The translations under genes and the position numbers were made by a program. This document shows, piece by piece, positions 8,951-59,722 of a stretch of DNA of 64,000 nt (positions within the stretch are counted from its first letter, which is position 1; each line of letters opens with the position of its first letter). Below the pieces are notes generated by a model. That model was not told where the DNA came from. It did no database searches and saw nothing but the letters and a program-made list of their open reading frames with translations. The stretch is from Escherichia coli (lineage in GTDB: Bacteria > Pseudomonadota > Gammaproteobacteria > Enterobacterales > Enterobacteriaceae), in assembly GCF_003334305.1 (NCBI RefSeq), contig NZ_QOWS01000003.1; one strand, written 5' to 3'.

Positions 8951-9047
8951 GCCGGATGCGGCGTGAACGCCTTATCCGGCCTACATAATCACGCAAATTC
9001 AATATATTGCAGAGATCATGTAGGCCGGATAAACGTAGTGCATCAGG
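8951..9047. repeat. REP (repetitive extragenic palindromic) element pair
   Basis: gccggatgcggcgtgaacgccttatccggcctaca and inverted copy tgtaggccggataaacg... Confidence 0.6.
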
Positions 9048-48723: not shown

Positions 48724-48898
48724 ATCTTATCCGACCTTTCAGGCCAGATCCTCGGAAGGGGAAGTTGATTAATTTGTGTGAAATACACATTGAAAGCCGA
48801 TTCGAAGAAAGTGAACCGGCATTTTCAGTGGCTAGTATAGCGTAAGGTACTGTAAAGTCGCCAGAGGGTTAAAATTCAGACTGCTGATAAATGCAATA

Positions 48899-48998
48899 CT
48901 GCCTGATGCGCTATGCCGATCAGGCCTACGCAGTCCCTGCAATATATTGAATTTGGACGATTTTGTAGGCCTGGTAAGGCATTCACGCCGCATCTGGC
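48899..48998. repeat. REP element pair
   Basis: gcctgatgcgctatgccgatcaggcctacg ... tgtaggcctggtaaggcattcacgccgcatc. Confidence 0.5.
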
Positions 48999-56113: not shown

Positions 56114-56644
56114 TTATTTATTCTTTGCGCGCTCGAAGGAAGCAACGATTTCAGCTTTAGCGGCTTCTGCGTTTTCCCAACCTTCAACTTTCACCCACTT
56201 GCCTTTTTCGAGGTCTTTGTAGTGCTCGAAGAAGTGAGCGATCTGCGCTTTCAGCAGCTCTGGCAGATCGTTAACGTCTTTAATGTGATCGTATTCTTTG
56301 CTCAGCTTTGTGTGCGGAACAGCAATCAGTTTCGCATCTTCACCGGCTTCGTCGGTCATTTTCAGAACGCCAACCGGACGGCAACGGATCACAGAACCCG
56401 GCTGCAGCGGGTACGGAGTCGGGACCAGTACGTCAACCGGGTCACCGTCCAGAGACAGGGTGTGGTTGATGTAACCGTAGTTGCACGGATAGAACATCGC
56501 GGTGGACATGAAGCGGTCAACGAACAGTGCGCCGCTCTCTTTGTCGATTTCGTATTTGATCGGATCTGCGTTAGCCGGGATCTCAATAACAACGTAGATG
56601 TCTTCCGGCAGATCTTTACCCGCAGGGACGTTGAGTAAGCTCAT
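56114..56644 (-). CDS. ppa: inorganic pyrophosphatase
   Basis: 176-aa ORF. Confidence 0.97.
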
Positions 56645-56953
56645 GTCTGTTTCCTTTAAAAATATGTGGCAAACAAGTGCCGAGTATTATAGCCAACTCG
56701 CGCCGAATGTCTTTGCTTGTTTTCGTCTTCATTTTCCTTTTTCGCCAGTTTTAAGACGGTATACAGAGCAGGAAAATCCATAACCGTAGCCGCATTTTTC
56801 ATAGTGAGATGAAAGCGATTACAAACTTGTGATTAACGTTTTATTTACTTTTTTGAAGTGTGATGTAACGCAATCCGTTACATAACGAATTGTCTATAGT
56901 TTTTTCGCGAACATCTTTTCACCAATAATAATTACCCCGACGAGGACAACCCT

Positions 56954-57910
56954 ATGTGGAAACGCTTACTTGTAGTCTCTGCAGTCTCGGCAGCCATGTC
57001 GTCTATGGCGTTGGCCGCTCCATTAACCGTAGGATTTTCGCAGGTCGGATCGGAATCCGGCTGGCGCGCTGCAGAAACCAATGTAGCGAAAAGTGAGGCC
57101 GAAAAACGCGGAATTACGTTGAAAATTGCTGATGGTCAGCAAAAGCAGGAAAACCAGATTAAAGCGGTACGTTCCTTCGTTGCACAAGGGGTGGATGCGA
57201 TCTTTATCGCTCCGGTGGTCGCGACAGGTTGGGAACCGGTATTAAAAGAGGCGAAAGATGCCGAAATCCCGGTCTTCTTGCTCGACCGTTCCATCGATGT
57301 GAAAGACAAATCTCTCTATATGACCACCGTTACTGCCGACAACATCCTCGAAGGTAAGTTGATCGGTGACTGGCTGGTAAAAGAAGTGAATGGCAAACCA
57401 TGCAACGTGGTGGAGCTGCAGGGCACCGTTGGGGCCAGCGTCGCCATTGACCGTAAGAAAGGCTTTGCCGAAGCCATTAAGAATGCGCCAAATATCAAAA
57501 TCATCCGCTCGCAGTCAGGTGACTTCACCCGCAGTAAAGGCAAAGAAGTTATGGAGAGCTTTATCAAAGCGGAAAACAACGGCAAAAACATCTGCATGGT
57601 TTACGCCCATAACGATGACATGGTGATTGGCGCAATTCAGGCAATTAAAGAAGCGGGCCTGAAACCGGGCAAAGATATCCTCACGGGTTCCATTGACGGT
57701 GTACCCGATATCTACAAAGCGATGATTGATGGCGAAGCGAACGCCAGTGTTGAACTGACGCCGAATATGGCAGGTCCCGCCTTCGACGCGCTGGAGAAAT
57801 ACAAAAAAGACGGCACCATGCCTGAAAAGCTGACGCTGACCAAATCCACCCTTTATCTGCCTGATACCGCAAAAGAAGAGTTAGAGAAGAAGAAAAATAT
57901 GGGGTATTGA
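56954..57910 (+). CDS. ytfQ: galactofuranose ABC-transporter periplasmic binding protein
   Basis: 318-aa ORF with signal peptide and sugar-binding-protein fold. Confidence 0.93.
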   Translation: MWKRLLVVSAVSAAMSSMALAAPLTVGFSQVGSESGWRAAETNVAKSEAEKRGITLKIADGQQKQENQIKAVRSFVAQGVDAIFIAPVVATGWEPVLKEAKDAEIPVFLLDRSIDVKDKSLYMTTVTADNILEGKLIGDWLVKEVNGKPCNVVELQGTVGASVAIDRKKGFAEAIKNAPNIKIIRSQSGDFTRSKGKEVMESFIKAENNGKNICMVYAHNDDMVIGAIQAIKEAGLKPGKDILTGSIDGVPDIYKAMIDGEANASVELTPNMAGPAFDALEKYKKDGTMPEKLTLTKSTLYLPDTAKEELEKKKNMGY

Positions 57911-57919
57911 GGGTTGCTA

Positions 57920-58075
57920 TGCCTGATGCCGATTCGTAGGCCGGATAAGGCGCTCGCGCCGCATCCGGCGGTGGTGCGCTGAAGCCTGATGCGACGCTTA
58001 CCGCGTCTTATCATGCCTACGAGTTCGGTGCTCTGTGTAGGCCGGATAAGGCGTTCACGCCGCATCCGGCAGTGG
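57920..58075. repeat. BIME (cluster of REP elements)
   Basis: three or more copies/inversions of gccggataaggcg(c/t)t(c)(g/a)cgccgcatccggc between ytfQ and ytfR. Confidence 0.6.
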
Positions 58076-58107
58076 TGCAACACCGGACTTAACACCGTGC
58101 ACAATCT

Positions 58108-58149
58108 GTCCCCTCGCCCCTTCGGGGAGAGGGTTAGGGTGAGGGGGAC
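58108..58149. repeat. GC-rich nested palindromic element
   Basis: gtcccctcgccccttcggggagagggttagggtgagggggac; ends are inverted repeats and the centre is ccc-ttcg-ggg. Confidence 0.4.
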
Positions 58150-58219
58150 AAACGGCGCAGCTCTTAACATCAGGCACGATCTATTCCCAGACTTTTAGAG
58201 CGTGGCTAAGGGGGAAACC

Positions 58220-59722
58220 ATGACGACCGACCAACACCAGGAAATCCTCCGCACCGAAGGATTAAGTAAATTTTTCCCCGGCGTCAAAGCGTTAGACAAC
58301 GTTGATTTCAGCCTGCGCCGTGGCGAAATCATGGCGCTGCTCGGTGAAAACGGGGCGGGAAAATCGACGCTAATCAAAGCATTAACCGGTGTATACCACG
58401 CCGATCGCGGCACCATCTGGCTGGAAGGCCAGGCTATCTCACCGAAAAATACCGCCCATGCACAACAACTCGGCATCGGAACCGTTTATCAGGAAGTCAA
58501 CCTGCTACCCAATATGTCGGTCGCTGATAATCTATTCATAGGTCGCGAACCCAAACGTTTCGGCTTTCTACGCCGCAAAGAGATGGAAAAGCGTGCCACC
58601 GAACTGATGACATCTTACGGTTTCTCCCTCGACGTGCGTGAACCGCTTAACCGTTTTTCGGTGGCGATGCAGCAAATCGTCGCCATTTGCCGGGCTATCG
58701 ATCTCTCCGCCAAAGTGCTGATCCTCGATGAACCCACCGCCAGCCTCGACACCCAGGAAGTGGAGCTATTATTTGTCCTGATGCGTCAGTTGCGCGATCG
58801 CGGCGTCAGCCTGATCTTTGTCACTCACTTTCTCGATCAGGTCTATCAGGTCAGCGATCGGATCACTGTCTTACGCAACGGCAGTTTCGTAGGCTGTCGG
58901 GAAACGCGCGAGCTACCGCAGATCGAACTGGTAAAAATGATGCTGGGGCGCGAGCTGGATACCCACGCGCTACAGCGTGCCGGGCGAACATTGTTGAGCG
59001 ACAAACCCGTTGCCGCGTTCAAAAATTACGGCAAAAAAGGAACGATAGCACCGTTTGATCTCGAAGTTCGCCCCGGCGAGATCGTCGGTCTGGCTGGCTT
59101 GCTGGGATCCGGACGTACCGAAACCGCCGAAGTGATCTTCGGTATCAAACCTGCTGACAGCGGCACGGCGTTGATCAAAGGCAAACAGCAAAACCTGCGA
59201 TCGCCACATCAGGCTTCGGTACTGGGTATCGGCTTCTGCCCGGAAGACAGGAAAACCGATGGCATCATCGCCGCCGCCTCGGTACGGGAAAATATCATCC
59301 TCGCTCTCCAGGCCCAGCGCGGCTGGCTACGACCCATTTCCCGCAAAGAGCAGCAAGAGATTGCCGAACGCTTTATCCGCCAGCTTGGCATTCGCACACC
59401 TTCAACTGAACAACCGATTGAATTTCTCTCTGGCGGCAATCAGCAAAAAGTGTTGCTTTCACGTTGGCTACTGACCCGACCGCAATTTCTGATCCTCGAT
59501 GAGCCAACCCGCGGCATTGATGTTGGTGCCCACGCCGAGATCATCCGCCTGATTGAAACGCTATGCGCCGATGGTCTGGCGCTGCTGGTGATCTCCTCCG
59601 AACTGGAAGAGCTGGTGGGCTATGCCGATCGGGTGATCATCATGCGCGATCGCAAACAGGTGGCGGAGATCCCGCTGGCAGAGCTTTCCGTTCCGGCGAT
59701 CATGAACGCCATTGCGGCGTAA
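58220..59722 (+). CDS. ytfR: galactofuranose ABC-transporter ATP-binding protein (duplicated ABC domains)
   Basis: ATG at 58220 gives 500 aa; two Walker A motifs (GENGAGKST, GLLGSGRTE). Confidence 0.93.
   Translation: MTTDQHQEILRTEGLSKFFPGVKALDNVDFSLRRGEIMALLGENGAGKSTLIKALTGVYHADRGTIWLEGQAISPKNTAHAQQLGIGTVYQEVNLLPNMSVADNLFIGREPKRFGFLRRKEMEKRATELMTSYGFSLDVREPLNRFSVAMQQIVAICRAIDLSAKVLILDEPTASLDTQEVELLFVLMRQLRDRGVSLIFVTHFLDQVYQVSDRITVLRNGSFVGCRETRELPQIELVKMMLGRELDTHALQRAGRTLLSDKPVAAFKNYGKKGTIAPFDLEVRPGEIVGLAGLLGSGRTETAEVIFGIKPADSGTALIKGKQQNLRSPHQASVLGIGFCPEDRKTDGIIAAASVRENIILALQAQRGWLRPISRKEQQEIAERFIRQLGIRTPSTEQPIEFLSGGNQQKVLLSRWLLTRPQFLILDEPTRGIDVGAHAEIIRLIETLCADGLALLVISSELEELVGYADRVIIMRDRKQVAEIPLAELSVPAIMNAIAA

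Follow-up and report, generated by a model that had tools for sequence, protein, structure and literature searches.

BIME-2-type and BoxC repeats in the spacer between ytfQ and ytfR of Escherichia coli

The ytfQ-ytfR spacer and its REP copies

In the window analysed here, a stretch of 64,000 nucleotides of Escherichia coli DNA, the gene for the periplasmic binding protein of a galactofuranose ABC transporter, ytfQ, is followed by ytfR, which encodes an ABC transporter ATPase, and the spacer that separates the two lies inside the ytfQRT-yjfF operon transcript. The segment from 57800 to 58300 matches many complete E. coli genomes at 100% identity, and the flanking genes are annotated as ytfQ and ytfR in these genomes. 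In K-12, both genes are co-regulated by cAMP-CRP. Since ytfQ ends at 57910 (its stop codon is the TGA at 57908-57910) and ytfR begins with the ATG at 58220, as judged from the alignment with K-12, the PGAP annotation of an identical allele and tblastn, the spacer covers positions 57911-58219. It is thus 309 bp long and not 290 bp, as an earlier note on this DNA had stated; the end point used there, 58201, is the base preceding an upstream in-frame GTG.

REP/BIME and BoxC elements are textbook repeats of E. coli, and the spacer is almost certainly a mosaic of these two enterobacterial families: a BIME-2-type series (y, inverted z2, y) is followed by an intact BoxC and by a decayed BoxC that supplies, with its last G block, the ribosome-binding site of ytfR, all of them within the ytfQRT-yjfF transcript (Table 1). 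Both kinds of repeat are already known, and the spacer is in this respect an ordinary feature. The anatomy proposed from the letters alone, a BIME and then a GC-rich nested palindrome within the operon, is borne out by the repeat analysis and by folding.

Table 1. Genes and repeat elements at the ytfQ-ytfR junction (positions in the window)
Feature	Position	Strand	Basis and remarks
ytfQ, galactofuranose ABC transporter periplasmic binding protein	56954-57910	+	ORF list; 100% match to annotated E. coli ytfQ
Putative z2-type REP head remnant, 14 nt, TGCCTGATGCCGAT	57920-57933	+	Direct repeats with the z2 head at 57984
First y-type REP (GTAG...GCATCCGGC)	57936-57969	+	Repeat finder, folding; predicted RNA hairpin, -21.1 kcal/mol
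Head-to-head linker between y and z2, 14 nt	57970-57983	+	Sequence
Inverted z2-type REP (GCCTGATGCGACGC...GCCTAC)	57984-58020	+	Repeat finder, folding; predicted hairpin, -14.7 kcal/mol
Second y-type REP, absent from K-12	58037-58070	+	Repeats, folding; predicted hairpin, -20.9 kcal/mol
Intact BoxC unit: conserved left flank CTTAACACCGTGCACAATCTG and GC core	58088-58149	+	Exact pattern match, family alignment
Decayed second BoxC unit	58163-58215	+	Direct repeats; alignment with the ATG-proximal BoxC of other genera
ytfR Shine-Dalgarno region, AAGGGGGAA	58207-58215	+	Position relative to the ATG at 58220; cross-genus alignment
ytfR, ABC transporter ATPase	58220-59722	+	100% identity to annotated E. 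coli genomes

The three REP copies alternate in orientation, as the earlier note had recognised. They do not, however, make up almost the entire spacer: REP material accounts for about 150 bp, roughly half of it, and the remainder is derived from BoxC. BIME-2 elements are defined as y and z2 copies with a short linker, arranged in tandem units whose copy number varies by strain (PMC3333891). All of these properties are found here: the y-type REP with its 5' GTAG imperfect palindrome is present in two copies, an inverse z2 that matches the z2 units of REP325 follows the first of them after a short linker, and the number of tandem units is variable among strains. The linker between the z2 and the second y copy measures 16 nt. 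According to the folding predictions, the first y and the z2 copy can moreover pair with each other, which gives a long hairpin of 90 nt and -50 kcal/mol. The y-REP 17-mer GTAGGCCGGATAAGGCG, which is exact in both y copies of the spacer, has seven matches in the 64-kb window as compared to 0.19 expected; further y-type REP matches are located at 8968-8984 (minus strand) as well as at 15757-15773, 43282-43298 and 48965-48981 (all on the plus strand). The 14-nt z2-like head at 57920-57933, which we infer to be the remnant of another z2-type REP, is present in all Escherichia alleles.

A scan of the spacer (57911-58219) detected no promoter-like site on the plus strand. An intrinsic (Rho-independent) terminator was rejected as well, there being no terminator-like site on the plus strand and G- or C-rich sequence after the hairpins. 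Two open reading frames cross the repeats, one at 57853-58170 on the minus strand and one at 57989-58198 on the plus strand; because no record annotates a gene there, we regard them as spurious. Our search of the literature for ytfQ in connection with REPs or 3' ends retrieved nothing specific.

The intact BoxC unit and its decayed neighbour

The GC-rich 42-mer quoted in the earlier note occurs exactly and only once in the window, at 58108-58149, and was not matched in any of 100 shuffled sequences. As described there, it is a nested palindrome: two G-rich blocks are each complementary to the same C-rich arm, CCCCTCGCCCC. It was also called unusual, and in this point the earlier note has to be corrected, since the element is a copy of the known BoxC/PIT/TM_ECO repeat, with a single loop base changed relative to K-12 copies. 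In fact, the literature has named this element four times (Bergler 1992, Hoyne 2000, Holder 2015, Kaplan 2016). Holder et al. 2015 (PMC4666352), who note that the motif was introduced as BoxC and later described as the PIT element, list 23 "TM_ECO" copies in MG1655, and published surveys of K-12 give 22-33 BoxC copies of about 56 bp. None of the 23 MG1655 copies is situated between ytfQ and ytfR (PMC4666352); the copy of the window is missing from that set because K-12 lacks BoxC at this junction.

The assignment to the BoxC family relies on several features. The core of about 36 nt has the three-block order of C-rich arm, G block and G block with the TTA second loop of type A; its 36-mer, CCCTCGCCCCTTCGGGGAGAGGGTTAGGGTGAGGGG at 58111-58146, corresponds to the Holder type "A mm" and is one loop base away from K-12 copy no. 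7, CCCTCGCCCCTTTGGGG... (Table 1 of PMC4666352). The 56-bp BoxC unit found in other genomes, which has a conserved flank and is dispersed in tens of intergenic copies, corresponds to positions 58091-58146 and is 96% identical over 56 nt to the phnK-phnL copy. An alignment of five BoxC copies revealed an invariant core and the conserved left flank. The copy studied here thus shares with the family the core, the flank, the intergenic location, the multi-copy nature and a strain-polymorphic locus. It differs in its partner: it stands in tandem with a decayed copy, whereas five K-12 sites consist of an inverted A+B pair.

The genome-wide count for which the earlier note had called could be obtained with a 115-nt query containing the element (window positions 58086-58200) that was compared to the complete E. 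coli genomes: a genome has matches in a median of 16 places and a maximum of 27. About 76,000 matches were found with this query, 31 of them on plasmids; one example, NZ_CP074792.1:1629-1664, covers the 36-nt core. Holder et al. (PMC4666352) report no association of TM_ECO with plasmids. In the ypfG-tkt spacer (L003:301-387; E. coli AR_0015 and many other strains), a segment is 79% identical to window positions 58106-58190. As this similarity includes the core and what follows on its right side (CATCAGGCAC...TCCCAG), the arrangement of an intact BoxC with a decayed next unit recurs there. Other E. coli BoxC copies (L002, L004, L005) carry GGGAGAGGGAGAAAAC to the left of the conserved flank. 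GGGAGAGGGAGAAAAC resembles a leftover G block from an inverted partner, and the basic BoxC unit may for this reason be an inverted pair of about 125 bp that is often half-deleted in E. coli.

Folding of the spacer RNA, which had likewise been proposed as a check, predicts stable hairpins for the REPs and for BoxC, the latter with -24.8 kcal/mol. The G-rich strand of BoxC is the conserved G-quadruplex motif HPG1 of Kaplan et al. 2016 (PMC5100583): it has four tracts of at least three G residues with loops of 1-7 nt, and in the window it is identical to GGGAGAGGGTTAGGGTGAGGG. When G-quadruplexes were allowed, ViennaRNA returned the same BoxC hairpin of -24.8 kcal/mol; its energy model, to which this result is confined, does not favour an RNA G-quadruplex over the hairpin.

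Downstream of the intact unit, a second version of its left flank (58088-58113), 77% identical, lies at 58163-58188, and GGGTGAGGGGGA at 58137-58148 is echoed by GGCTAAGGGGGA at 58204-58215, immediately 5' of the ytfR start codon. This second unit was identified by an alignment of positions 58157-58222 with the BoxC next to the ATG in Enterobacter, Leclercia, Pseudocitrobacter and Kluyvera. It has kept the left flank as CTTAACATCAGGCACGATCTATT, its core has suffered an 8-nt deletion and substitutions, and the third G block survives as GGCTAAGGGGGA. The Shine-Dalgarno region of ytfR is derived from the third G block of a BoxC, and the blocks of this unit can also be aligned with the 3' end of the spacer in K-12. 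The intact BoxC of the long allele is 73 nt away from the ytfR ATG. We also considered that the C-rich arm of the intact BoxC masks the ribosome-binding site of ytfR in an allele-specific manner, and rejected this idea: the site is predicted to be unpaired with a probability of 0.23 in the long, 0.33 in the mid and 0.31 in the K-12 allele, which is no clear difference.

Alleles in Escherichia and the same junction in other Enterobacteriaceae

The spacer of the window is one of at least four E. coli alleles and is carried by a minority of the genomes. Direct counts found the BoxC module at this locus in 878-916 of 5,426 complete E. coli genomes (about 17%). For the typing of alleles, we searched with the flanking coding sequence and sampled the rows evenly down the ranking, so that the following shares are estimates from the sampled rows: (i) the long allele of the window (309 bp; y, z2, y and BoxC units), about 12%; (ii) the mid allele of EC28 (212 bp; one y and BoxC units), about 5%; (iii) the short allele of K-12, CFT073, O157 and ST131 (139 bp; y and z2), about 73%; and (iv) a divergent short allele of strain 2779 (132 bp; y and z2), about 8%. 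In K-12, the spacer holds the first y and the z2 copy and is devoid of the third REP and of an intact BoxC. The BoxC module and the third REP are dispensable, as about 83% of the E. coli genomes live without them.

The BIME-2 copy number varies from one unit in K-12 through one and a half in the window to at least three in E. whittamii. In the latter species (L070), at least three perfect tandem y-z2 units are located 3' of ytfQ, the sequence ending inside the array. BoxC units were also found in the scan of species representatives in Escherichia sp. E1V33 (304 bp) and in "E. coli" E69 (212 bp), and since these two carry them as well, the BoxC module probably predates the diversification of E. 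coli and was lost in the K-12 type. This view of the ancestral state is drawn from E. sp. E1V33, E. coli E69 and E. whittamii, the ytfQ C-terminus pattern having recovered none of E. albertii, E. fergusonii and Salmonella; recombination is a possible alternative source of the allele pattern.

With a pattern for the C-terminus of YtfQ, we retrieved 98 loci from species-representative genomes, 95 of which have a measurable spacer. The repeat family at the junction differs by lineage: a full three-block BoxC is present in 33 of the 95 spacers, 14 contain only the CCCTCTCCC/GGGAGAGGG hairpin, 25 have only REPs, and the 23 with other content mostly turned out, upon inspection, to harbour degenerate BoxC-like hairpins or other long palindromic repeats. 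An AT-richer long palindromic repeat of about 100 nt takes the place of REP and BoxC in L031, L067 and L101. Despite this turnover, the spacers are strongly structured in comparison to dinucleotide shuffles, with a median folding z of -4.2 and 82% of the 95 species below -2.

Among the 33 spacers with BoxC, 20 have an inverted pair (L013, L022-L024, L037, L038, L047, L083, L088, L090, L093, L094 and L098 are examples), 11 have BoxC in plus orientation only (three of these also with REPs), and two in minus orientation only. The stem blocks are essentially invariant across species, and so is largely the position: the third block of plus-orientation BoxC ends 6-10 nt 5' of the ytfR ATG in 24 of 31 species, and minus-orientation BoxC starts 2-13 nt past the ytfQ stop codon in 20 of 22 cases. 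The inverted pair fills the spacer in most of the 20 species that have it. For three of them, folding predicted one hairpin over nearly the whole spacer, the Shine-Dalgarno sequence included, with an outer stem CCCTCACCC:GGGTGAGGG in Enterobacter cloacae and Leclercia; the Shine-Dalgarno sequence has a predicted unpaired probability of 0.11-0.20 in two of the three and of 0.39 in Leclercia. We found no description of this fixed position of BoxC across genera in the literature that we examined. Larger arrays occur as well: in Pseudenterobacter timonensis (L041), a BoxC linker-plus-hairpin unit is tandemly amplified at least three times in a 313-bp spacer, and the 685-bp spacer of the MAG UBA5654 (L039) has four BoxC matches on each strand.

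A possible role in differential expression of the operon

REPs downstream of the gene for a binding protein are the classic arrangement for unequal expression of the genes of one operon, and we consider it reasonably probable that the ytfQ-ytfR spacer, as a mosaic of known repeats, forms hairpins that raise the expression of ytfQ over that of the downstream genes. As the spacer is devoid of a promoter, ytfR, ytfT and yjfF would rely on the promoter of ytfQ and on read-through of the spacer. Once transcribed, the REPs and BoxC would form stable hairpins without U tails, and these may act in two ways: they would impede 3'-to-5' exonucleases and thus protect the ytfQ segment, and they would cause a partial, probably Rho-assisted, loss of transcription into ytfR. 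Together, protection and loss of transcription would yield more message for the binding protein than for the ATPase and the permease. Taken by itself, this mechanism is an argument by analogy which we favour to a slight degree. The REPs would be the main carriers of the effect, and the share of BoxC may be nil.

The closest analogue is the BIME-2 array between yjdM and yjdN of E. coli K-12, the REP325/naRNA4 locus. Both loci have y and z2 types with a short head-to-head linker (12 nt in REP325, 14 nt between ytfQ and ytfR), both have the same orientation to the operon transcript, and both are placed between two co-transcribed genes. In contrast, REP325 consists of six y-z2 units as compared to one and a half at ytfQ-ytfR, where BoxC elements follow; moreover, a function has been measured for REP325 only, to which the ytfQ-ytfR spacer is likened by sequence. 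In a 2026 preprint, Northern blots identified REP325 as a stabiliser of the upstream mRNA and a partly Rho-dependent terminator; upon deletion of REP325, the yjdM/yjdN ratio changed from 35 to 1. According to the same preprint, 146 tandem gene pairs separated by REPs have, genome-wide, a higher upstream/downstream expression ratio than controls. The effects of REPs depend on the context, and terminal REPs do not uniformly lengthen half-lives (literature including the 2026 preprint).

The ytfQ-ytfR junction also resembles, by analogy, malE-malF and hisJ-hisQ, in which REPs lie directly 3' of the gene for a periplasmic binding protein in an ABC operon. The upstream segments of these operons were reportedly found to be stabilised by REPs by Newbury, Stern and Higgins in 1987-88. 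The idea of the earlier note that the structures act as mRNA stabilisers or decay barriers is plausible for the REPs by analogy with REP325. To our knowledge, no function of BoxC has become accepted in 30 years. As a stabiliser or decay barrier, BoxC has no support past its predicted RNA hairpin of -24.8 kcal/mol, because the published tests of PIT elements were null: as summarised in PMC4666352, they have neither promoter nor terminator activity, no effect on RNA polymerase and no effect in vivo. Three further points speak against the proposed mechanism: the constant occupancy of the junction by structured repeats could reflect a site that is permissive for selfish repeats, the BoxC module and the third REP are dispensable to most E. 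coli genomes, and the long and the K-12 alleles differ little in the modelled accessibility of the ytfR ribosome-binding site.

The first of these points leads to the alternative that has to be taken most seriously, although we deem it unlikely: the REPs and BoxC may be neutral selfish DNA that accumulates, expands, contracts and decays in a tolerant spacer without any selected effect on ytfQRT-yjfF, the alleles being the outcome of drift or recombination. In agreement with such a process, E. coli has four alleles of the spacer, one BoxC has decayed and a REP remnant persists, and the BIME-2 copy number ranges from one to at least three units across Escherichia. Moreover, TM_ECO loci differ between strains by rearrangement to a far greater extent than control intergenic sites (PMC4666352), and no functional correlation was found among the neighbours of TM_ECO in published work. 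However, the junction is strongly structured in 82% of the 95 species despite the turnover of repeat families, and REP325, which has the same architecture, has a measured effect. In addition, the distance between BoxC and the ATG is fixed in 24 of 31 species, so at least the part that binds the ribosome is constrained.

The fixed position of BoxC, from the ytfQ stop codon to the ribosome-binding site of ytfR in many genera, suggests another possibility, a hairpin for translational coupling. On this view, BoxC would long have belonged to the operon in the Enterobacteriaceae as a cis-element of fixed position, and the E. coli allele would be a decaying form of it whose 5' half has given way to REPs. 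The inverted pair that fills the spacer in Enterobacter, Leclercia, Pseudocitrobacter, Phytobacter, Silvania and others would hide its last G block, the Shine-Dalgarno sequence of ytfR, in a spacer hairpin of about 120-140 nt; this hairpin would be opened at its base by a ribosome that reaches the end of ytfQ, and the translation of YtfR would in this way be coupled to that of YtfQ and set below its level. We hold this to be rather doubtful, somewhat more so than neutrality.

It is also conceivable, but improbable in our view, that the repeats act on the DNA: BIME-2 would, by analogy, be a site for the binding and cleavage by DNA gyrase, and BoxC would form an intrastrand triplex or a G-quadruplex that stalls polymerases and promotes local rearrangement. 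The cleavage of BIME-2 by gyrase is cited in PMC3333891, and according to published work, TM_ECO (the family consensus, not the copy of the window) adopts a stable triplex structure in vitro and has been linked to genomic instability. The identity of the G-rich strand with HPG1 and the fact that ytfQ-ytfR is polymorphic exactly at the BoxC module are in agreement with this idea; the in vivo studies of PIT elements, which by the summary in PMC4666352 observed no effect, and the RNA hairpin that ViennaRNA prefers even if G-quadruplexes are allowed are not. Such roles are compatible with effects at the level of the RNA and do not exclude them.

Finally, it is very improbable that processing of the REP pair releases a noncoding RNA of the nucleoid like naRNA4 (originally proposed in PMC4550694) that would act with HU on chromosome organisation: Rfam RF02564 does match 57939-58017 on the plus strand over model positions 1-77 with 67.3 bits against a gathering score of 59.5 (E = 1e-9), the only naRNA4 match above this score in the 64 kb, but the model was built on the y-z2 unit of REP325 and is in effect a y-z2 REP pair, so the match indicates REP-pair sequence rather than naRNA function, and the idea is further weakened by the 2026 preprint, in which REP325/naRNA4 caused no measurable nucleoid compaction and REP-REP contacts were not detected; the biological role of naRNA4 is disputed. 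An Rfam search of 56500-59000 by E-value gave only naRNA4 matches on the REPs and none on BoxC. Other matches in the window that reach the gathering level are the ES239 sRNA, the RpsF leader, STnc450 and ES036 (CssrF), with sites at 45311-45433 (plus), 25426-25510 (plus), 48785-48842 (minus) and 48922-48964 (minus); ES036 (CssrF) adjoins the REP-like match at 48965-48981.

For the preferred explanation, a protection of the ytfQ message by REP hairpins together with partial loss of transcription into ytfR, E. coli itself provides the material: the natural allelic series of 139, 132, 212 and 309 bp could be used to test the effect of REP number and of BoxC on the ytfQ:ytfR ratio. For annotation, the naRNA4 match at ytfQ-ytfR should be read as a y-z2 REP pair and not as a distinct sRNA gene. 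In the family as a whole, the fixed place of BoxC over the ribosome-binding site of ytfR in many genera offers a testable idea, at the level of the RNA, for what BoxC may do.
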